A DNA stretch of 14,463 nucleotides from an uncultured archaeon (GCA_964583985.1 CAZOYD010000025.1:29961-44423), one strand, 5' to 3'; shown: positions 2,731-14,394, counted from the stretch's first letter. The notes: generated by a model from the sequence alone, not told the origin. Made by a program: numbers and translations.

Positions 2731-2756
2731 AAAATAAGAAATTAAAAAGAATTGTG

Positions 2757-3170
2757 TCATTTTGAATATTTTTGATATTTTTTCCTTAAATATGCCATTT
2801 TAGTCAGATCTTCTGATTCTATAGCTCCAGGATATTCATAATAATTATCCAAGACCATCATTACTGGGCTATTTTCAGAACTCCAATCTTTATAATAATC
2901 TAATATAACTTTTGGATCAAATCCTTCTGCATATTCCTTTTGCGTTTTTTTCACCTCCACTCTTTTTTAAATCTCACGCAGATAATTAATCCAGTTCTTT
3001 AGTCCTATTTTATATTCTGTGGGAAGTAATAATGTCAAGAGAACAAATCCTACAAGGTTATAAAAAGGAGTAAAAGAAAAGGATTCGTTCTCTCTTCATA
3101 ATACTACGGGAATAATGGCTCTCTTATAGCCAATACGAGTGCATGTAGTATTATGATGTGAAATAAACAT
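2757..3170 (-). pseudogene. Probable decayed gene of unknown function (138 codons with two internal stops); the track's 67-aa ORF is its 3' part
   Basis: One frame from ATG 3170 reads MFISHHNTTCTRIGYKRAIIPVVL*RENESFSFTPFYNLVGFVLLTLLLPTEYKIGLKNWINYLREI*KRVEVKKTQKEYAEGFDPKVILDYYKDW...KYQKYSK*, with TGA at 3098-3096 and TAA at 2969-2967. TTTATAAA (3200-3207) lies about 30 nt upstream, and the minus strand is T-rich after the stop (2731-2750). Confidence 0.45.
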
Positions 3171-3325
3171 TATGTTCAAAAAGATCAAGGGAGAATTACT
3201 TTATAAATTTTATGGGAGTTTTTTCCCATTCATCAAGTTTTCCTACCCTCATAATTTCAAAATAAGGTGTAAATTCTAATTTTTACCCTAAATCCTTGAT
3301 ATCTTCTTTTTAAGCTAAAAAATCT

Positions 3326-3348
3326 AATGTGATATGTTGCATAACATT
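3326..3348. promoter_or_regulatory. Nested inverted repeat upstream of the giant ORF; candidate operator
   Basis: AATGTGAT-N7-ATAACATT (7/8 match, 3326-3348) overlaps a perfect ATGTT-N4-AACAT (3334-3347), about 55-75 nt before ATG 3401. An SD-like GAGGG is at 3389-3393. Confidence 0.35.
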
Positions 3349-3400
3349 TTTGTATGAGTTTTGTCTTATAACACAAGAATAAAAAAATGAGGGTTTTAAA

Positions 3401-6400
3401 ATGAAATCTAAAGGAACAGAAAATTCTCAAGAGAGAATTGTAAAAGCAACGGAATCTTTATGGAAATTTTTGTGGTTTTTGGTTTATATCATTTTCATTC
3501 CGACTTTAGTTGCAGTGTTGTTTTTCTTTCTTTTTGGGTTTGTTATAACTTCTATTTTCGGAGTTTCTGATTTTGTCATACCCCTCGCTCTCTCTGCTAT
3601 TATGTTTCTTGTGTCAATTCTCATATTTTACAGACCCTTTGACAAATATCGGAATAAATCAATATTTCAAAACAAAATAAACAATCCAAGAGTCAGGATC
3701 CATATCTTATTCTTGATAACCTTAATTTCGCTTATATACACTCCGGTGTTTTTGTTATTTGTTCCACAATATTATCAAGATCAATTAAATTTACTACCAT
3801 TGATCACCTTCGTTTTAACATATAATAGCATATATCTTTATTTTTTTTCACAACCAATAGACTTTTTCAGCATTTCTGATTCGAGCTTTAAACATTTTAA
3901 TAGGTTTAAAGATACGATAAAACAACCATATAATCTTATAATCCTTATGAACTACGCAGTTCATATAGCTTTTTTATCCTTCACTTTTGAAATGCAACTA
4001 TTGAATATTAACATATCTTGGTCATTTGCTTTTATTACTAACCTTTTATTTTATATAATAGCGTTAAGAACGACTAAACCATACGTTAAAAAGATTGAGT
4101 ACGCAATATCTAATCAAGGTGGTTTTCTTGAGGATTTAGTCCTCTATAAACAAGCTTTCGTAAAATCCATTGTCAGAATGGATTTTCTCATATTAATTCA
4201 AATTCCTTTTGGAATTCTATCAGTTTTCTTCAGGTCGATTGGACCTAATTCATTAATTAATGCGTTCTTCATAACAATTCTTCTTCTAATCTTTAATTTT
4301 AAAATTGATATTTATCTGAAATCTTATTATTTCAATCAGTTAAATCGATTAAACCCAGAAAAGTATCCTTCTCGTGAGCTTGGAGTAAAGTGGAATTTTT
4401 TTTTAACTGTTTTAATTATGATATTGATTCCTTCTTATATCTTCTACTATTCTTTCAGTATCCCAGAAGTACTATACTTTAATTTTCTAGCTTTAGTTAT
4501 TATTTTTACAATTACAAGAGTAGAAGAAAAATATAAATATCTTCCAAAAAGTTATGCTAGGCATCTGCATCTAATCAACACCATTTTCCTTTTAGCAATT
4601 ATATCCTTTCAAATCCTTTCAGTTCTAGATCCTTTCATCCAATTTGCTATATTTTTAATTTCTTTGTATTTTGGTTTAGAAATCTTTACAAAATATGAAT
4701 ATTATAGCAAAAAGAATGTTCTAATTGTCCAAAACATCCTTGCGATTTCAGGTTTTTATTGTATCGCGTATATATTTTTCAAAGAGATAGCCTTTGGAAC
4801 AACACCTATAGATAGTATTAACAATTTCATAGTACATTACATCCTTCCAGGGTTAATTGGCTCCCTATTTTCTCTATATTTACTTTATTTCCGGCATTTT
4901 TACAATAAATCGTGGAAAACTTTAAGAACAGGTTTCATAATCAATTGTTTAGCCATAATTGGACTTGCTTTTTATTTATTCAATCTAAATTTTGATTTTA
5001 ACACCATGGTTGCTTATGTAATTGGTTTTTCCATTTTATATATCATTTTTTCAGGGTTTAATTACATCATACAACTTTTCACTAAGGAAAATTTAGTAAA
5101 TAATATATATAATACAATTTGGTTGTTAGATTTCAGTATCTTCTCTGTACTGTTAGTTAATACGTTGAAAAGTGGAGTTACGCTTTTTACAATAATTCCC
5201 GATTTCTTTATCCTATCTATCTTGATTCTCTTCACAGTTTGGTTTGGTAAAAAAGTCGGTAGATTGAGTGAAGATACATATTTCAAACTTTTTAATTTGA
5301 ATGGATTTTTGCTAATCATTGAAATTTTTATATTATCATCACAATATCTCATTGAAAAAGTCTTTTTAGATGAAATCGAATTTAAGATTTTAGCCTATTT
5401 TTTATCTACATGCATTATATCATTAATTATAAATATAGCGGCCCCTTCAAAATCACCTTTAATTAAGAAAGTAAAGGGTTTTCTTAATATTTTCACTGTC
5501 ATGTTCGGATGGTTTGTCTTAGAAATGTTTTATTTCTTGACAAATTACCAAAATCTCTATTACCTTTATGGTTTAATCATTTTCTCTTCAATTGTGACCA
5601 CACTTCCAATAGGGTTCTTAGTAATTGCAAAACTTATTGATAAAAAGAAATTTGTTGATTATCTATATCTCGTGTTAAATGTCATTTGTTTGACTTCGTT
5701 CTCTTTTATTATTCACTTCATATTGTTAACCAATATTGTTGATCTTTTTTTTGGAATTAATTTCATACTTTTATCATTAATCATTTGTTATATTGGAATA
5801 GGTAAGTTAGGAGTTAAATTCGGATATGTTTCTGAAGAATTTTATATAAAATTTGTAAAGTTAATGTATTATCCAATTGGTATACTACTGTTCCTCGTGT
5901 TCTTTAGCTTTACTTTATCAACCACTGGTGATAATTTTCTCTCCTTCCTAATTGCCTCGTTAATTTTATCAGCAATGACTAATTTTGCGAGTTTACGCTT
6001 TAAAACGATTAATTTAATTAACTTGCGCATCACATCATTTACGCTTTTTTTTGCTGCGATTTACGTGTCTATATTTTTATTTCAATCATTTATAATTATC
6101 CCATTTTCAACATTATCCCTTTCTGAATGGTATGTTAATCTTTATGCATCTGTAATGTCTATTCAAGTCATTTTTTACATCCCTTTCGGATATTTAGCGG
6201 CGAAAAAAGTCATAAAAAGGGAAGTATACTATAGATATAGCTATTATTCAATGTTTAGCTTGATGCTTTTATTGTTTCTCTTCATAGTATCATTCTTTTA
6301 TAATTTGTTTTATTCTTCCATGGTATTTTACATTCTTGCCTTTATTGCAGATCTGATTTATATAACCATAACTCTCTATAATCATATCAAGAGAGGGTTA

Positions 6401-9400
6401 GCAAAAAAATACCTTCCCATAATTCACCTAACACAGAAATCTGCGATTATCCTTTATACTACGCTTTTTACTGAATTTTACTCATTTCTATTAACCATAA
6501 TACTTCTGTTTTTTCCACAACCATTGCAGTTATGGCAGATGTGGTTTTCGAGTTATTTCGCATTCATTTTAATAACATTAGTGATAATGGCTTTAGCAAG
6601 TAAGTTGATTATTTTTTCTACTGATTTCAGTCGAAGAATAAACCTGATATCTTTAATCTTCACTTCAGTTACTTTTTCATACTTTATCTTAAATCTTGTA
6701 AATAGTATTTTCAATAACTTGTTTTTGCAATGGGACATTACAATAATAAGCTTTCTTACCTTTTTACTACTTCCTTTATATCATTCAATTAAAAGAAAGA
6801 TGTTTCAGCGATTTCTGAGTAAAAATTATGTCTACATCAACGGAATTTTAATTTCACTTTTTATAATAGCTCTACCAGCATTGTTCGCTTATGAATTTTC
6901 TCTTTTTGAAAACTATTTACCCTATATCATCATATCTTCAATTGTATTAGTATACTGTTTTTTAAAGTATTTAGAGTACACATTTGATGAATTAAAAGTT
7001 GGTCAAGGTCGAATTATTGCTTTAAAGACTATCCAGTTGATTAGTTGGAATTTATTATCAATTATCGCATCTAATACTATCTTTATCACATTTGCTCCAA
7101 TGTTTATTGATCAGTTGTTCTATATGGTGTTAATGAGCTCATTTATTACATTTTTCATAATAAATCTGAACAGCCTTACGATAATAGAAGATATAAAGCA
7201 AAGAGTCTTTGAAAACGAGGATCTTAAAATTGATTATTACAAAGTTTATAAAATCTATGAATTTTATAAAAACATTAGCTTTTTCGCATTCATTTTCTCA
7301 ATATCAGGATTAATTTCTGCCTTCTTATCGCCTATTTCATATATAATTGAAGATCTGATACCATTACTATTTTTATCACCAGAAATAATTCAGTTCGAAG
7401 TGTTCTTTTTACTTACACTTTTAATTCTTTTAATCACGCAGAAAATCGAGATAGAATATCAAAAAATTAGAACTTGGATTATTTTAATTTCTTGGGTTAT
7501 AATAAAGGGCACGATATGCGTGTATATGTATTTTTATTTTATAGATACTCCAATCATAGCTTGGAGTATATCAATATTGATATTCTCGGTATTAAGCCCT
7601 ATTACGATGAATTTTATTAAGAATATAAGGTTAATTTTTGGCACCACAAAAAAGATTATCAAAAGCACCCTTGTAAGTTCATTTTACATTTCCTTGATCA
7701 CGCTTTATCTTCTATATTTCTGGAATCTTAGGATTAGTCCTTTTTTCACAGAAAATCTACTATTATTTTGGTTTTTACTAATAAGTAATATCATTATTTA
7801 CTTTGATTACGTTTTTATAAGATTGAAAGACGTTTTTGAAGCAAATTTTGAATTTAATTTATTAAAACTCTATTTCAAATCTGCACTAGTCTTATTTCTA
7901 TTTATTTTCATTGATTTTTATTTAAACCTGATATTATGGTTTATTGCTGCGATTGTTTTGCTAAATCGCAGGAATCATAGTATTATTATTAGGTGGGTAA
8001 TTTACATGTTGTTTACACTTTCATTATACATCTATATAACAATAGATTTTTCAATTTTGCTTACCTTAGGGGGGAGATATCTTTATATTATATTAACCGG
8101 GTCCCTTTTATCCGTGTTATTCATTTCAATTTTAACTAATTACGAGAAAGTTAATGACATAGAAAAGTTTAGTGTTTATTTAATTCTGTCGTTCCTATCA
8201 TTTATAGCATGTTCGCTGATCCCTGGATTTTTCGTTATTCCTGGTTTACTCTATAACGGCACTTTTTCATTATTGATTTTCTTGGTTTTAACTGGTAATC
8301 ATTATTATCAAAAGAGAGATAATAGATACAAATTATTTATCAGACCTTGTGTTGTTTTGGCAGTATTTGATTTTACTAGCTTTTTATTTTATGGAATGCT
8401 CTTCAATAACACTCCTTATAGCCCCGTATATCAACCGATTCTGAGTTTTACTTCCACTTTTAGTTTGACAGGATTTGCGTTTGTATCTCTTTATAATCAA
8501 TCTCCTCAGAGGTTTAGAAAATTATCATTCTTTATCGTTTTACCCCTCTTGATTTTAAGTGTTCCCATTTTCGTATATTATTTCACTTACGCAACGTTTC
8601 CCTTACTTAGAACTTCAGTATTACCTTTAACTATTTCTTTAAACATAGGAATTTTCTTTTTCTTTATAGCAATTGGACTATATCAATGGAAATTTTCAAG
8701 AGCGATTTGGAAAACGGGATTTTGGGCCTGGATTTTATTTCCAATAATAAATTATGCTGTAATTGATCAATCTTTGGCAAATTTGAGTTTACGAACTTTA
8801 GAGCTTTTTGGTTTTATCAATATTCCTGCCTCAACCCTATTAGCGATTACAATCTGTATTATTTTATCCTTTCCGTTTTGGTATACTTGGATAAGAGCTC
8901 ATTTTACTACGGTCTTGTTTGCTGCTTGGATATTAAATCTCGGTTTACTCTATTGGTTTAGCCAATCCTTATTCTTTGGAAGTGAATTATTGATAAATTC
9001 TTCATTTCTAATTTTTTCATTCATATTGCTCATGCCATTAGTTTATAAACTTAAAATTTGGAGAGTATTGATGGCGTTCTGGATCCTTTTTACAATAATT
9101 ACTATTTCCTTTATTGATTTCACCTTTATATCAATGGGGTTCGATTCTACTACTGTTTTATCTATTGATATCAGTGTAATAGGTTTATCCCTTATCTTTT
9201 TATCATATTTCCCCAATATGAGGAATAAGAGGAATCTTTCATTAATCATAGCTTATTTTACATTAATAACAGGGATTTCCATAATGGTATATCAAATTAT
9301 TCTCATCGCTACTGTTTTTAGAGGTGATCCAATAGGAGCTCTATATTTAACAGTGATTATAATCTCTGCTTCATCATTTTCGTCTAGAATACTAAAGATT

Positions 9401-12400
9401 AACAAAATTCTTATGAATTTTTTAATTTCGTGGGCGTTAGTTATTTCATTTGCTCTTATGTCTTTCCATATTTATAGTAAATTATTTCCATATGATATTG
9501 GAGCATTGTATATAGCATTAAGTGTTGGTGGTTTAACTTTTTTTATTTTTAATCGCTATAAAATGCTTTGGGGTTCTTATGAAAACTTTATGCCCGTTTC
9601 TTCCATAATTGCATTTATTGCAATTTCATTAGGAACTTCGCTTTCAATTTCATCCATATTGTTGAATTATTTAATATTAGAAAATCCTTGGTTCCTAATC
9701 ATATCCGTATTCCTATTCACAAATATTATATTTCTTTCATTTAAACTAAAAATTTACCAATTTATCTTAGCTTATTTACTTCCGATCCCTATAACCTCAT
9801 TAATTCTCCACTTATTAGTGCTTTTTAATCCATTGATAAATGCTCTGATTCTATCCATACTAGGTATCTTCATTTTTAGTTTCCTCAATCAATTCATGAA
9901 AGTAAATATAACTTTTAAAGCAATTTTACGTTTAATTTTATACCTTGACAGCTTTGCCCTATCACTTCTACTATCAAATATCCCAGATCCGTCATTAAAT
10001 CTCTTTATTTCATTATTAATTTTATTTGTATTAACATTCTTTGAAAATCTCCTAGTGAAAAAACGTAAGTACTGGTTTAATGTTCTCTTAAACCTCGTTA
10101 GTTATGTATCTTCAACTGTGTTCTTATATTGGTATTTGAATGGTATATTTTTAGAACAGTATGATTACATGATATGGTTAAATACGTTTATTTTTATATT
10201 ACTTCAAAAGTATACAGTTTATATCGCCTATACAATTTTAAAATCCTTGAATAAATATGATCTGGAAAAACTTATGCGATATAAGTCAATTTTGAATTTC
10301 ATGTTATCAAATTTTCTATATATCCTTATAAGTCTTTATGGTTCTTTAAGCCTTGGCTCTATAATTCCTGCAATTTTCTCTCTAGTTGAAATCGCATCAA
10401 TCTTCTTGGGTTTAACTTTATTCTGTTTATTCTATTTTATTCTTATTAGCGTTTTCAATAAAAAACTAAAAGGTAAAATTAGGAGTTTTACAAGAATGGG
10501 CTTATTTTTGGCTTTTCAAGGTAATTTATTCGGATTATGGGCTTTTAGTCTTGGTTTATCTGATCTATTTTATTTAATGTTCATATTGATTATCGAAACG
10601 ATATTATTATATTACACTTTTAGCTTGATCTCTCTATCAATAAAGAAGGAGGGTAAAGAAAGGGTATTAAACTACGCTCCACCTTTAACTTACCTTTTAT
10701 ATGTTGAAATCTCAATATTGAGTTTTGCTTGGTTTAATATTTTAGCATTATATCAATTATATTCAAGTATCTTGACCATCTTGGTCTTTTTTATCTTGAC
10801 TGTTATTGATTTGGGAGTTGTTAAAAAGGTCAATATTAAGTTGATGAAACTCAGTCATTTTTTTAGTTATACTACTTTATCTATGCTTATTTTTATTCAA
10901 GCCTTTGACTTTCTATTTGGCCAGATTAACACCATTATCTTCAACTTTATCATAATCTTTTTCCTTGCCATGCAGTTTTATACGATACGATCTCTATTTT
11001 CATTCTTAAGTCATTATCAATGGTTCAATAATATTAAAGCGTTAAGAATTAAGCAAATGATCAATAACATCTTGATAAATTCGATTTTTGTATTATTAAG
11101 TTTATTAGGCACACAGTTAGTCACAGATTATATTTTTCAATTTAATAATCTATATTTGTATTTATTATCGTTTTCTTTCTTTATTTTCTTTTTAAATGGA
11201 ACCGTCAACAGAACTATTGAAAAATCTTTAAGAGTCAAATTCTTACTTGTCCCCTCCTTTATTGCCTTGCAGGTATTTTCACTTGCTTTTATGGTTAATA
11301 TAATGATTTTGAGTGATATTAACCTCTACTTCTTTTGGTTGAGTTTAATTACTCTCATCGAAACCGTTTTAAGTGTTTATCCTCTAAATATTGCTAGAAA
11401 ATATATGATGAATGAAGCAAGAAAATTATTAATTTCAAGATTGTTTAAAGTGGTTGACTTTTGTTTGTATCTTGAAATTACTATGTTAAGTTTTGGATTA
11501 TTTTATTTCAATTTAAATCAAGATCCATTCCAGAGCTTATTATATTCCCAATTGGTATTGTTTGGACTAAGCATTTTAGAAATAGTTACTTTTAAGAGAT
11601 TAAAGGAAAAATTTGGATACGTTATACATCTTCTAAGTTACCTCGTTATTTCAGCTTCATTAATCTATATAATATACTTATTATCACTATCAGAAATTTT
11701 TTACCTAATAGTTATTTTGATGCAGTTCTATTCTAATTACGTTTATTACAGAATGAAGCGTGATATAACCCCCACCAAGGCTGAAAATTACCAATATGGG
11801 GCTGTAAGGAGACAAAGAGTAATTGGAAATGCTTTCTATATTGTGTTAGTCTTTTTAGTTTCTCGATTTCTCTTAATTTTTAGTGGTTTCGATATTTTAA
11901 CTTCATTTTTCTTGATTAGTTTACTACTCCATTTAATCTCCCTACTTGACAGGGCGATATTAATATTCCTTGGTCGCTTATCAATGCCACTAATTGTCAT
12001 TTCACTAATATTTATCAATATTTTTTCAATTCCATCGCTATTGACATTTATTTTTAGTACAGGACTTACTTATACTTTGATTCCCTTAGTGATCCTCATC
12101 GTAGAATTAGAGTTATTCTATTTAACTAAACTTATCAGTAAATGGCAAACCTTTAGAAATCTGATTATATCCATTTTATATTTCAATATTTCATCGTGGC
12201 CTGTTTATTTTGTGAGCATTGAAGTTACACTTCAAACAATATTGATAAATTTTAACTTGATACTATTGTCTTTATTTTTATTATTCATAATGGTAAAAAT
12301 TGACAAGAAAATTAATGCTTTAAGCATAAAAATGTCGAAAGGCATCATTTCTACATCATTAGTTATTCTTGGGTTTGGAATCCCAATAGATATTTTTATT

Positions 12401-13234
12401 CTATTACAATCATACCTCCAAGCGCAATTTCCGCTAAATGTTGCATTTTCAGCTTTTATTGGCACGATTGAGTTGGGGATCATCAAAAAACCCTATAAAA
12501 AAAAGAGAACCATCTCATTCTTCTATACGCTTTCACTTCTCATCGAATTGTTAGTTATCACTGATCAAATAAATATTCCTGCATTAGGATACAGTATATT
12601 AGTGCTTGGGACGCTTATTTATCTCTATACTTTCTTGTTAGAAGAATTGAGGGAATTTTTCAGCCATATCGTTGATTATATCTCAAAATTCTTTAAAGCT
12701 ATAATTTCCTTCATTAACTCGATCTTGAATTCAATTTACAATTTCTTAAGGAGGAATTACGTCACACTTAAAATACTTTTAGCTGCTACCATCGGTAGTC
12801 TATTGGGATATGTGTCGTCTATAGTTCCTATATTTCTCCCCGTTCCTTTGAGCGTAATTAATCCTCCTCATGCGCCTTTATTTGGTTTAGCCGTATTCGG
12901 TTTAATTGTCGGACTTTTTCCTGGAACGAAATCTGAAGATCCAGATATAATCTTTAGAACACGAATGATTCGATTTAGTACAGCTTGGTTCGGAATTACA
13001 ATTGTGATTGTTACACTTATATTACCTATAATTAGCGATGATATCATTCTACAAGCATTCTTAGTACTCTCATCTTTCGTGATCTTAGGCTTAATCCTTG
13101 CGATTTATGTGTGGAGGATTGAGAAAAAGCAAAAAATTTCAATTAAATGGCGATTTTATATTACCATAACATTAATAGTAATGCTAGTGATTTGGGGAAT
13201 TTTGATATTTATGTTATATCTCGGTCCTTCATAA
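3401..13234 (+). CDS. Giant polytopic membrane protein (3277 aa, about 100 TM helices by eye, internal repeats), function unknown
   Basis: A 9834-nt open frame in AT-rich DNA cannot be chance. SD-like GAGGG precedes the ATG and a T-rich tract follows the stop. Hydrophobic 17-24 aa segments run end to end, separated alternately by short neutral or acidic loops and K/R-rich loops. No Walker motif, signal-peptide-plus-ectodomain or catalytic motif recognised. Confidence 0.95.
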   Translation: MKSKGTENSQERIVKATESLWKFLWFLVYIIFIPTLVAVLFFFLFGFVITSIFGVSDFVIPLALSAIMFLVSILIFYRPFDKYRNKSIFQNKINNPRVRIHILFLITLISLIYTPVFLLFVPQYYQDQLNLLPLITFVLTYNSIYLYFFSQPIDFFSISDSSFKHFNRFKDTIKQPYNLIILMNYAVHIAFLSFTFEMQLLNINISWSFAFITNLLFYIIALRTTKPYVKKIEYAISNQGGFLEDLVLYKQAFVKSIVRMDFLILIQIPFGILSVFFRSIGPNSLINAFFITILLLIFNFKIDIYLKSYYFNQLNRLNPEKYPSRELGVKWNFFLTVLIMILIPSYIFYYSFSIPEVLYFNFLALVIIFTITRVEEKYKYLPKSYARHLHLINTIFLLAIISFQILSVLDPFIQFAIFLISLYFGLEIFTKYEYYSKKNVLIVQNILAISGFYCIAYIFFKEIAFGTTPIDSINNFIVHYILPGLIGSLFSLYLLYFRHFYNKSWKTLRTGFIINCLAIIGLAFYLFNLNFDFNTMVAYVIGFSILYIIFSGFNYIIQLFTKENLVNNIYNTIWLLDFSIFSVLLVNTLKSGVTLFTIIPDFFILSILILFTVWFGKKVGRLSEDTYFKLFNLNGFLLIIEIFILSSQYLIEKVFLDEIEFKILAYFLSTCIISLIINIAAPSKSPLIKKVKGFLNIFTVMFGWFVLEMFYFLTNYQNLYYLYGLIIFSSIVTTLPIGFLVIAKLIDKKKFVDYLYLVLNVICLTSFSFIIHFILLTNIVDLFFGINFILLSLIICYIGIGKLGVKFGYVSEEFYIKFVKLMYYPIGILLFLVFFSFTLSTTGDNFLSFLIASLILSAMTNFASLRFKTINLINLRITSFTLFFAAIYVSIFLFQSFIIIPFSTLSLSEWYVNLYASVMSIQVIFYIPFGYLAAKKVIKREVYYRYSYYSMFSLMLLLFLFIVSFFYNLFYSSMVFYILAFIADLIYITITLYNHIKRGLAKKYLPIIHLTQKSAIILYTTLFTEFYSFLLTIILLFFPQPLQLWQMWFSSYFAFILITLVIMALASKLIIFSTDFSRRINLISLIFTSVTFSYFILNLVNSIFNNLFLQWDITIISFLTFLLLPLYHSIKRKMFQRFLSKNYVYINGILISLFIIALPALFAYEFSLFENYLPYIIISSIVLVYCFLKYLEYTFDELKVGQGRIIALKTIQLISWNLLSIIASNTIFITFAPMFIDQLFYMVLMSSFITFFIINLNSLTIIEDIKQRVFENEDLKIDYYKVYKIYEFYKNISFFAFIFSISGLISAFLSPISYIIEDLIPLLFLSPEIIQFEVFFLLTLLILLITQKIEIEYQKIRTWIILISWVIIKGTICVYMYFYFIDTPIIAWSISILIFSVLSPITMNFIKNIRLIFGTTKKIIKSTLVSSFYISLITLYLLYFWNLRISPFFTENLLLFWFLLISNIIIYFDYVFIRLKDVFEANFEFNLLKLYFKSALVLFLFIFIDFYLNLILWFIAAIVLLNRRNHSIIIRWVIYMLFTLSLYIYITIDFSILLTLGGRYLYIILTGSLLSVLFISILTNYEKVNDIEKFSVYLILSFLSFIACSLIPGFFVIPGLLYNGTFSLLIFLVLTGNHYYQKRDNRYKLFIRPCVVLAVFDFTSFLFYGMLFNNTPYSPVYQPILSFTSTFSLTGFAFVSLYNQSPQRFRKLSFFIVLPLLILSVPIFVYYFTYATFPLLRTSVLPLTISLNIGIFFFFIAIGLYQWKFSRAIWKTGFWAWILFPIINYAVIDQSLANLSLRTLELFGFINIPASTLLAITICIILSFPFWYTWIRAHFTTVLFAAWILNLGLLYWFSQSLFFGSELLINSSFLIFSFILLMPLVYKLKIWRVLMAFWILFTIITISFIDFTFISMGFDSTTVLSIDISVIGLSLIFLSYFPNMRNKRNLSLIIAYFTLITGISIMVYQIILIATVFRGDPIGALYLTVIIISASSFSSRILKINKILMNFLISWALVISFALMSFHIYSKLFPYDIGALYIALSVGGLTFFIFNRYKMLWGSYENFMPVSSIIAFIAISLGTSLSISSILLNYLILENPWFLIISVFLFTNIIFLSFKLKIYQFILAYLLPIPITSLILHLLVLFNPLINALILSILGIFIFSFLNQFMKVNITFKAILRLILYLDSFALSLLLSNIPDPSLNLFISLLILFVLTFFENLLVKKRKYWFNVLLNLVSYVSSTVFLYWYLNGIFLEQYDYMIWLNTFIFILLQKYTVYIAYTILKSLNKYDLEKLMRYKSILNFMLSNFLYILISLYGSLSLGSIIPAIFSLVEIASIFLGLTLFCLFYFILISVFNKKLKGKIRSFTRMGLFLAFQGNLFGLWAFSLGLSDLFYLMFILIIETILLYYTFSLISLSIKKEGKERVLNYAPPLTYLLYVEISILSFAWFNILALYQLYSSILTILVFFILTVIDLGVVKKVNIKLMKLSHFFSYTTLSMLIFIQAFDFLFGQINTIIFNFIIIFFLAMQFYTIRSLFSFLSHYQWFNNIKALRIKQMINNILINSIFVLLSLLGTQLVTDYIFQFNNLYLYLLSFSFFIFFLNGTVNRTIEKSLRVKFLLVPSFIALQVFSLAFMVNIMILSDINLYFFWLSLITLIETVLSVYPLNIARKYMMNEARKLLISRLFKVVDFCLYLEITMLSFGLFYFNLNQDPFQSLLYSQLVLFGLSILEIVTFKRLKEKFGYVIHLLSYLVISASLIYIIYLLSLSEIFYLIVILMQFYSNYVYYRMKRDITPTKAENYQYGAVRRQRVIGNAFYIVLVFLVSRFLLIFSGFDILTSFFLISLLLHLISLLDRAILIFLGRLSMPLIVISLIFINIFSIPSLLTFIFSTGLTYTLIPLVILIVELELFYLTKLISKWQTFRNLIISILYFNISSWPVYFVSIEVTLQTILINFNLILLSLFLLFIMVKIDKKINALSIKMSKGIISTSLVILGFGIPIDIFILLQSYLQAQFPLNVAFSAFIGTIELGIIKKPYKKKRTISFFYTLSLLIELLVITDQINIPALGYSILVLGTLIYLYTFLLEELREFFSHIVDYISKFFKAIISFINSILNSIYNFLRRNYVTLKILLAATIGSLLGYVSSIVPIFLPVPLSVINPPHAPLFGLAVFGLIVGLFPGTKSEDPDIIFRTRMIRFSTAWFGITIVIVTLILPIISDDIILQAFLVLSSFVILGLILAIYVWRIEKKQKISIKWRFYITITLIVMLVIWGILIFMLYLGPS
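5048..6970 (+). repeat. Degenerate protein-level tandem repeat, about 190 aa (6 TM), at least 3 copies
   Basis: FGKKVGRLSEDTYFKL (S623) vs LGVKFGYVSEEFYIKF (S811). LPIGFLVIAKLIDKKKFVDY (P736) vs IPFGYLAAKKVIKREVYYRY (P928) vs LPLYHSIKRKMFQRFLSKNY (P1125). Spacings are 188, 192 and 197 aa. Confidence 0.7.
9920..12175 (+). repeat. Degenerate protein-level tandem repeat, about 254 aa (8 TM), 3 copies plus a possible partial fourth
   Basis: LYLD/LYVE/LYLE at aa 2180/2433/2689 (then LYFN at 2926); LVSY/FFSY/LLSY; LQKY/MQFY/MQFY at 2268/2524/2774; IIET/LIET/IVEL with E at 2399/2654/2902. Spacings among the three full copies are 248-256 aa. Confidence 0.85.
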
Positions 13235-13845: not shown

Positions 13846-14394
13846 ATGATAAAAATGGAAACCAAAGAAGAAAAACTCAACGTCAGAGATTGGATCACTC
13901 TGAGTACTGTAATGATAGGCGCAGTATTAACCATCCTTGCGTTAATTTGGCAAAATGTCCCTAGTAATGGAATTGTAACTGTAACTTTCCTCCTAATGTT
14001 AGGGTTCATTTTCTTTGTAAATTCCGTATCAACTAACTCTAAGGCTAAATTTGAATCAAAGTTAAAGAATGTGGATAGAAAGAAAGTGAATCAATTCGTA
14101 GCGTTTGCAGAATATTCTTTTGGGCTCGGATTTACATTCGTAATAATCGCATTTGCATTCCTTGGCTACAAATACTTGTTAGACTTTGTTGGACGTAATT
14201 TAATGACATTTCTACTGCCAATCGTATTCTTGTTGACAGCTTGGATAATTATAGTTATCTATAATATTATAAATTTTTCAGGAAAAGCATTCAAAAGTTT
14301 TAGAAGTTTAAAGCGAAGTATCTGGATGCTCTTAGAGTTAATAGCTTTAGGGTTTATTGTATTAGATTTCTTTGGAATTATTATAATTCCTTAA
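13846..14394 (+). CDS. Hypothetical integral membrane protein, about 5 TM helices
   Basis: 182-aa ORF (alternative start ATG 13855) with hydrophobic segments WITLSTVMIGAVLTILALIW, IVTVTFLLMLGFIFFVNSV, YSFGLGFTFVIIAFAFLGY, LMTFLLPIVFLLTAWIIIVIYNII and IWMLLELIALGFIVLDFFGIII. Promoter-like element upstream and oligo-T downstream. Confidence 0.88.
   Translation: MIKMETKEEKLNVRDWITLSTVMIGAVLTILALIWQNVPSNGIVTVTFLLMLGFIFFVNSVSTNSKAKFESKLKNVDRKKVNQFVAFAEYSFGLGFTFVIIAFAFLGYKYLLDFVGRNLMTFLLPIVFLLTAWIIIVIYNIINFSGKAFKSFRSLKRSIWMLLELIALGFIVLDFFGIIIIP

Follow-up and report, generated by a model that had tools for sequence, protein, structure and literature searches.

How can a single archaeal protein consist of almost nothing but membrane helices, and what are the three consecutive stretches (U1, U2 and U3) in its C-terminal third that appear to repeat the same eight-helix pattern? 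The locus lies in a 14,463-nucleotide stretch of DNA from an uncultured archaeon, which we analyzed as a whole and refer to as the window. The window is AT-rich (G+C 27–33%) and its sole long ORF encodes the protein in question, P0001 (Table 1), which has about 100 transmembrane (TM) helices, contains no soluble domain and matched no entry of Pfam or NCBIfam. To our knowledge, no precedent has been described for a conserved family whose members have about 100 membrane helices and lack a soluble domain; the usual record holder is Piezo, with 38 helices. A literature search likewise found no description of these giant Asgard proteins. When compared with other sequences, the N-terminal 2,173 residues of P0001 matched 75 proteins of 1,900–3,600 aa with E-values from 0 to 1e-42, and all 75 bear the annotation "hypothetical protein." The named homologues come from Promethearchaeota/Hodarchaeota (Asgard) MAGs, such as EU533_00715 and ACFE94_02905. 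By homology, P0001 is assigned to an uncharacterised family of giant all-TM Asgard proteins.

The relatives share the architecture of P0001, in which repeat zones of variable length flank a conserved core. When 17 full-length homologues are aligned, conservation peaks at residues 1600–2000, and two zones of low occupancy are found at residues 800–1100 and 2400–2650, the latter corresponding to U2 (residues 2401–2600 are occupied in just 16–17% of homologues). The neighbouring genes that are kept by synteny have metabolic or transport roles and comprise an aminotransferase, a GH4 glycosidase (in relatives) and a Liv-type ABC transporter. The synteny analysis revealed no partner gene and drew no functional hint from these neighbours, and a GH4 remnant that we looked for in the 670-nt upstream gap is absent.

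Table 1. Coordinates of the giant ORF, its modules and their halves within the window.
Feature	Position (nt)	Strand	Description
Giant ORF P0001	3401..13234	+	3,277 aa, nearly all TM helices; host of the modules
U1	9920..10678	+	aa 2174-2426; type A; 8 TM; HMM envelope 2174-2424; key residues Y2181, D2183, S2204, E2215, K2220, K2221, N2231, S2234, Y2235, Q2269, Y2271, T2272, N2304, Q2373, E2399, Y2405
U1 first four-helix half	9920..10252	+	TM1-4; carries the putative main polar cluster
U1 second four-helix half	10253..10678	+	TM5-8
U2	10679..11446	+	aa 2427-2682; type A; HMM envelope 2427-2679; key residues Y2434, E2436, D2470, K2475, K2476, H2486, S2489, Y2490, Q2525, F2526, Y2527, T2528, N2560, N2599, Q2624, E2654, Y2660
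U2 first four-helix half	~10679-11020		
U2 second four-helix half	~11021-11446		
U3	11447..12175	+	aa 2683-2925; type B; HMM envelope 2683-2920; key residues Y2690, E2692, S2716, E2727, K2732, H2743, S2746, Y2747, Q2775, F2776, Y2777, S2778, D2850, E2904, Y2907
U3 first four-helix half	~11447-11770		
U3 second four-helix half	~11771-12175		
Possible degenerate module remnant	12176..12508	+	aa 2926-3036; weak HHalign similarity

A preliminary description of this DNA had proposed that the three stretches are tandem 8-TM modules, and comparison with shuffles, natural segments and orthologues establishes them as true homologous repeats. Every motif quoted for them is present where it had been placed, with residue 2174 encoded from nucleotide 9920 and residue 2925 ending at nucleotide 12175. 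Smith-Waterman alignment of the units gave z-scores against 200 shuffles of 10.7 (U1-U2), 6.0 (U1-U3) and 3.1 (U2-U3). As a second control we used 100 natural 254-aa pieces of P0001, which share its composition and helix spacing, and obtained z-scores of 9.2, 5.1 and 2.75 for the same pairs; the observed unit-unit scores were reached by none of the 100 natural segments, nor by any shuffle. BLASTP with composition adjustment aligned the unit pairs in register (E = 1e-3, 1e-4 and 7e-4). Matches between the units and those of orthologues were also found, with U1 aligning to the second unit of P0003 (E = 5.6e-9), U2 to the first unit of P0005 (E = 1.4e-14) and U3 to the three tandem units of P0006 (E = 1e-10 to 1e-17). 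A self dot-plot of the whole protein, one of the checks suggested in the preliminary description, places the strongest off-diagonal signal in the module region at an offset of ~250, and an HMM built from 11 units finds exactly three copies in P0001 and nothing else in its 3,277 residues. No DNA-level repeat was found among the modules or at the putative fourth unit (see below), as expected at 23–31% identity between the units at the protein level.

A protein of which Leu, Ile and Phe make up 43% could produce such similarities by composition and regular TM spacing rather than by homology, and HMMER bias correction does strip ~40–50 bits from the intra-protein unit-unit scores, leaving 5.5 to −18 bits; this explanation, which we consider to have next to no chance of being correct, is nevertheless ruled out by the natural-segment, BLASTP, orthologue (1e-9 to 1e-17) and profile controls, and the conservation of polar columns over 86 modules likewise argues against it.

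We employed the module profile to survey where such units occur. It matched 87 of 399 Asgard genomes, with matches in 83 of the 133 genomes of the window's own family and in three more of the same order. Orthologues identified in this search keep an open frame at 2,500–3,340 aa, and the genomic matches always lie in open frames of ~2,000–3,340 codons or in contig-truncated pieces. Among 1.84 billion representative proteins, the profile found 49 matches, all of them giant Asgard proteins or fragments; no stand-alone module was present, every short match being cut at a protein end. The module is located only in giant proteins, near their C-terminal third, and its number varies across relatives from one to four tandem copies.

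A maximum-likelihood tree divides the modules into type A, which occupies the first position, and type B, which occupies the last (SH-aLRT support of 95% family-wide and 100% within the genus). A-B is the ancestral order of the two types, which are 19% identical within one protein, and mean pairwise identity is 40% for type B and 32% for type A. P0001 is among the few family members with three full modules, which follow the order A-A-B with U1 and U2 both of type A; the extra copy, U2, is limited to the lineage of the window and G270 (the source of P0003). The duplications had been described as old, which holds for the family-wide A/B split but not for U1 and U2, as these derive from a later, genus-level duplication of type A. 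G259 duplicated type A on its own account; in the sister genus and in P0006, it was type B that was duplicated. In all, at least three independent duplications took place. U1, U2 and U3 are each 65–72% identical to their G270 counterparts, a value equal to that of the whole protein. The window copies are thus as conserved as the rest of P0001, and therefore all three have been maintained.

The AlphaFold2 model of U1 displays eight helices (pLDDT 89.1, pTM 0.78), and that of an A-B pair displays 16 (pLDDT 83.6, pTM 0.64). Lys and Arg residues are concentrated in alternate loops, with 2.1, 5.3, 1.2 and 3.5 per module in the loops after TM2, TM4, TM6 and TM8, respectively, compared to 0.00–0.05 per module in the remaining four loops, which are only 2–5 residues long. 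This bias fixes the topology of the module as N-in/C-in, with almost nothing exposed outside the cell. When the two halves of the module were compared by HHalign, they aligned in register over 117 columns (probability 94.3%, E = 1e-7) with a score of 46.8, versus 16–18 for reversed and 6–12 for column-shuffled controls. The halves TM1-4 and TM5-8 are homologous, and hence the basal unit is a four-helix block of ~125 residues; judged by these profile comparisons, each 8-helix module is a duplicated 4-helix unit. Matches obtained with VIA-align likewise divide the U1 model at residues 111/112. A helical conservation-moment test for buried faces was significant for no helix.

The preliminary description could assign the domain to no known family, and searches of Pfam, NCBIfam, PDB sequences, Foldseek, VIA-align and the ESM atlas bear this out. 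None of the 86 modules that we collected matched Pfam, the best hit of a profile search against PDB sequences had E = 2.5, and the ESM atlas returned nothing above 0.82. Foldseek against the PDB gave best E-values of 0.67 (module) and 0.034 (A-B pair), with TM values of at most 0.32. VIA-align against 48,161 chains gave best Z-scores of 9.4 (module) and 10.8 (pair) over ~100 residues, which is in the noise range for helical bundles. Thus, the 8-helix module is an orphan domain with no convincing family or fold match and constitutes a new domain family. The least-bad Foldseek rows for the A-B pair are alpha-solenoid/TPR and designed solenoid repeats, not transporters (E of 0.03 or higher, TM values of at most 0.24).

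To define the polar skeleton of the module, we examined an alignment (A2) of the 86 modules, which come from ~40 genomes. In TM1, Tyr17 is present in 74% of modules and position 19 is Glu in 83% (Glu or Asp in 86%). TM2 carries a Ser (85%) and ends on the cytoplasmic side at column 56, which is Asp or Glu in 100%, followed by Lys61 (84%) and then by Lys or Arg (76%). TM3 contains His or Asn at column 72 (81%), Ser or Ala (88%), an aromatic residue (98%) and Ser or Thr (91%), and TM4 contains Gln113 (86%), Phe114 (92%), Tyr115 (85%) and Thr or Ser at column 116 (97%). Further conserved positions are Asp or Asn at column 201, at the end of TM6 (86%), and Tyr276 in TM8 (83%). The Asn of TM5 and the Gln of TM7 are found in 41% and 45% of modules, respectively, and the Glu of TM8 occupies either column 270 or column 273. 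The skeleton seen in three units is therefore kept across 86 modules, except that the TM5 Asn, the TM7 Gln and the TM8 Glu, which are real, are type-specific. The accompanying observation that hydrophobic positions drift (~19–30% identity) with the polar and acidic skeleton retained holds as well. The 86 modules show no intramembrane Lys or Arg partner that is conserved.

Type B modules keep the skeleton almost without change, and part of it is gone from one type-A lineage, in which Glu19, Lys61, His72, Gln113 and Tyr115 are altered jointly and Asp56 is retained. This joint change of five polar positions, although essentially one evolutionary event, is suggestive of a coupled site. In two members of the genus (L009 and L012), Glu19 is lost alone and the rest of the polar set is retained. 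The TM1 Glu is in the middle of its predicted helix, and the polar residues of TM2, TM3 and TM4 lie within one to three turns of the cytoplasmic ends; these positions make it plausible that a single polar cluster forms in that half of the first bundle which faces the cytoplasm.

A fourth partial unit had been suspected to start at residue 2926. The HMM does not detect it, and what persists of the proposal is a weak similarity by HHalign, with P = 1.3e-3 for residues 2954–3036. When the region following the last module was aligned across homologues and compared to the module, the genus alone gave P = 2e-3, and pooling with the sister genus, which has a clearer partial module, gave E = 1.9e-5; reversed controls gave 0.14–0.19. 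Residues 2926–3036 are at best a degenerate module remnant. An iterated HMM also indicated a remote extra copy near residues 1150–1450 of some orthologues, and HHalign marked residues 1196–1419 of P0001 as a possible remote copy; with a clean profile the scores are just 6–16 bits, and we regard this candidate as a hint.

What might be the role of such an array? The reading that we favour, to which we give a probability of roughly 0.45, is that the modules serve as self-contained structural repeats from which a membrane arm is built and can be extended, and that each has a polar core centred on carboxylates. The A-A-B array adjoins the C-terminal side of the best-conserved core and represents one of the two length-variable arms of the protein. 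The modules would form a row of membrane-embedded helical hairpins, and tandem duplication would add or remove them with the giant protein left unbroken. The polar core would consist of the mid-TM1 Glu/Asp, the acidic end of TM2, the His/Asn-Ser-Tyr of TM3 and the Gln-Phe-Tyr-Thr of TM4; it would keep the first four-helix bundle together and may, in addition, accommodate a cation or proton. A structural role is consistent with the variation of copy number from one to four, the duplications (at least three), the absence of U2 from most homologues and the maintenance of the module copies, as well as with the solenoid-like character of the least-bad Foldseek rows. Those rows are, however, far from significance, and the conservation-moment test is not significant. 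The mid-membrane carboxylate that is near-invariant in type B also speaks against this reading, as such a residue is the usual sign of ion or proton handling rather than mere packing.

That residue is central to the main alternative, which we consider possible but rather unlikely. Each 4-helix unit would be an ion or proton site repeated along the arm, by analogy to the carboxylate sites in ATP-synthase c-subunit hairpins or in the small Glu-bearing subunits of complex I and Mrp. From the mid-membrane TM1 carboxylate, a ladder of residues (Ser, Tyr, His/Asn, Gln and Asp/Glu) would lead to the cytoplasm, and H+, Na+ or another cation would be bound or conducted by the array. Such a site would account for an acidic column 56 in 100% of the 86 modules, for Glu/Asp at position 19 in 86% (essentially invariant in type B) and for the conservation of H/N72, S75, Y76, S80, Q113, Y115 and T116 at 81–98%. 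The joint loss in one type-A lineage, in which the fold and Asp56 are retained, would fit an inactive-partner copy, but it is in essence that single event, and the loss of Glu19 alone in L009 and L012 also speaks against this alternative. Likewise, VIA-align recovers MrpG, MbhC, ND4L/NuoK, NuoJ, NdhG and c-ring hairpins, yet with Z-scores (8–9.4, over ~60–105 residues each) that are helical-bundle noise. No transporter or ATPase family was matched by sequence, no conserved intramembrane Lys or Arg partner accompanies the carboxylates, and free variation between one and four copies would be unusual for a coupled transport machine.

Considerably more doubtful is the possibility that the modules are lipid-handling or enzymatic units that bind or flip, for example, archaeal lipids or polyprenyl-linked sugars, with the cytoplasm-side polar cluster serving as a catalytic site or as a site for head groups. 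Without a soluble domain, the protein could act only on membrane-borne substrates, and the acidic, His and Tyr residues that are conserved beside Lys-rich loops at the cytoplasmic face of the membrane would suit this role. Nevertheless, the modules have no similarity to GT-C, flippase, scramblase or acyltransferase families or folds, the outside loops of 2–5 residues leave no space for an external active site, and duplication and loss as free as that seen here are rare for catalytic sites.

Defining the module isolates a tractable building block, either the 250-residue module (pLDDT 89) or the 500-residue A-B pair, through which an otherwise intractable protein of 3,277 residues becomes expressible, reconstitutable and solvable. 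It also narrows the targets for mutagenesis to a few invariant polar residues, and the new domain family could enter databases.

Several known systems invite comparison with the arm and its polar core. The NOX/STEAP ferric-reductase TM domain supplies the top VIA-align rows for single module halves (NOX5, Z = 9.4 over 102 residues, rmsd 3.1; cyanobacterial NOX5 TM domain, Z = 8.7 over 127 residues), but these matches each cover half a module, either the first or the second, with Z-scores in the helical-bundle noise. The paired haem-ligating His residues are absent from the module, in which one His/Asn column (column 72) is conserved. The Complex I/Mrp antiporter-like family (Proton_antipo_M) was not matched in Pfam or NCBIfam; its subunits are built from two 5-TM repeats in inverted orientation, in which helices are broken and Lys and Glu residues are conserved in mid-membrane, whereas the Asgard module has eight unbroken predicted helices, arranged as two direct 4-TM repeats, and conserves acidic residues but no intramembrane Lys.

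Glu ion sites are found in ATP-synthase c-subunits, NuoK/ND4L and MrpG-type small subunits, and the likeness of the modules to c-subunits, NuoK and MrpG lies in a conserved mid-helix Glu amid Gln, Ser, Thr and Tyr in antiparallel TM helices. Chains of the c-subunit/NuoK/ND4L/MrpG type recur in VIA-align with Z-scores of 7.8–9.4 over 60–105 residues, which is noise for helical bundles. The ATP-synt_C family has no Pfam match, and its VIA-align matches are those of a generic hairpin (Z ~8, ~62 residues). The modules have no sequence relationship to these subunits. Furthermore, c-subunits, NuoK and MrpG are small separate subunits of known complexes, whereas the Asgard modules are arranged in tandem in one giant chain.

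The blades of Piezo1 and Piezo2 comprise nine tandem 4-TM helical units per protomer, and the Asgard proteins resemble them in being very large polytopic proteins made of tandem four-helix TM units, two of which form each module. A bolder extension of this likeness, which we consider improbable, is that the modules act as autonomous four-helix units, bearing carboxylates, in an arm that can be extended; module number would tune the length of the arm, its repeated acidic sites would bind or relay cations or protons, and the arm would be an independent archaeal analogue of Piezo-type blades. If such an arm exists, it might be a membrane-shaping scaffold, a force sensor or an ion sensor. Among known organisms, the Asgard archaea are the nearest relatives of eukaryotes, and ideas on the origin of eukaryotes draw centrally on their membrane biology, including protrusions and remodelling. 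There are also differences from Piezo. Neither P0001 nor the 86 modules match Pfam, the search of PDB sequences gave no match, no Piezo chain is among the Foldseek and VIA-align matches listed for the module or pair model, where weak matches may not appear, and P0001 has no recognisable pore or cap module. The Asgard units also stand apart from Piezo in their conserved skeleton of acidic and polar residues and in a number that varies among close relatives.

Some homologues of the giant protein carry partial or apparently altered forms of the 8-TM module. At locus L039:7903-10572 of G280, a genome from the same order as the window but another family, two full modules flank three short repeats spaced by ∼120 aa, each matching only the first 70–110 positions of the module profile (TM1-2/3). 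Sub-module pieces can evidently undergo amplification as well. In three loci of the sister genus (L034, L048, and L051), a partial third module directly follows the last full one, matching profile positions 4–78 and 150–249 with the middle portion (TM3-4) missing, and is a 6-helix variant. Protein P0004 (2,036 aa, 68% identity across the repeat region) has overlapping first two modules, with profile positions 2–222 aligned to aa 1059–1285 and positions 72–249 to aa 1260–1446. This overlap looks like the removal of ∼80 residues, either by unequal crossover or by assembly collapse.

We aligned profiles of the two module halves (half 1, TM1-4; half 2, TM5-8) to the window protein using HHalign. 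Half 1 matched aa 1196–1268 (P = 0.01) and half 2 matched aa 1276–1419 (P = 7e-4), in the correct order, and the equivalent place in orthologues scores 6–16 bits with the module profile. These matches are no more than a hint that a further, remote module copy may lie here. The latter half of the module profile also yields weak matches (4–11 bits) at the extreme N-terminus of many orthologues (aa 1–160 of L032, L037, L046, and others); the window protein gave no match of this kind above 0 bits.

A second repeat class, weaker than the modules and with an offset of ∼200 aa, occupies aa ∼500–1100 of the giant protein (window 4900–6700), where the segment pairs 601/801, 701/901, 551/751, and 501/701 give z values of 2.9–3.6. 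Because residues of this zone are present in just 35–53% of homologues, it looks like another length-variable arm of the protein.

Coordinates of the candidate module copy and of features flanking the giant gene
Feature	Window position	Strand	Remarks
Candidate remote module copy	∼6986-7657 (aa 1196-1419)		Far upstream of array; HHalign, half profiles
Gap, aminotransferase gene to giant gene	2731-3400		670 nt
67-aa ORF within this gap	2757-2960	-	
Multi-pass membrane protein, downstream of giant gene	13846-14394	+	182 aa

In 12 related loci, the interval upstream of the giant gene is occupied by a GH4 glycosidase gene; a search of the corresponding gap in the window found no GH4 remnant. The downstream membrane protein keeps its position in seven loci of the genus, and its sole Pfam match is a weak one, below the cutoff, to Peptidase_M50B-like (E = 0.0085).
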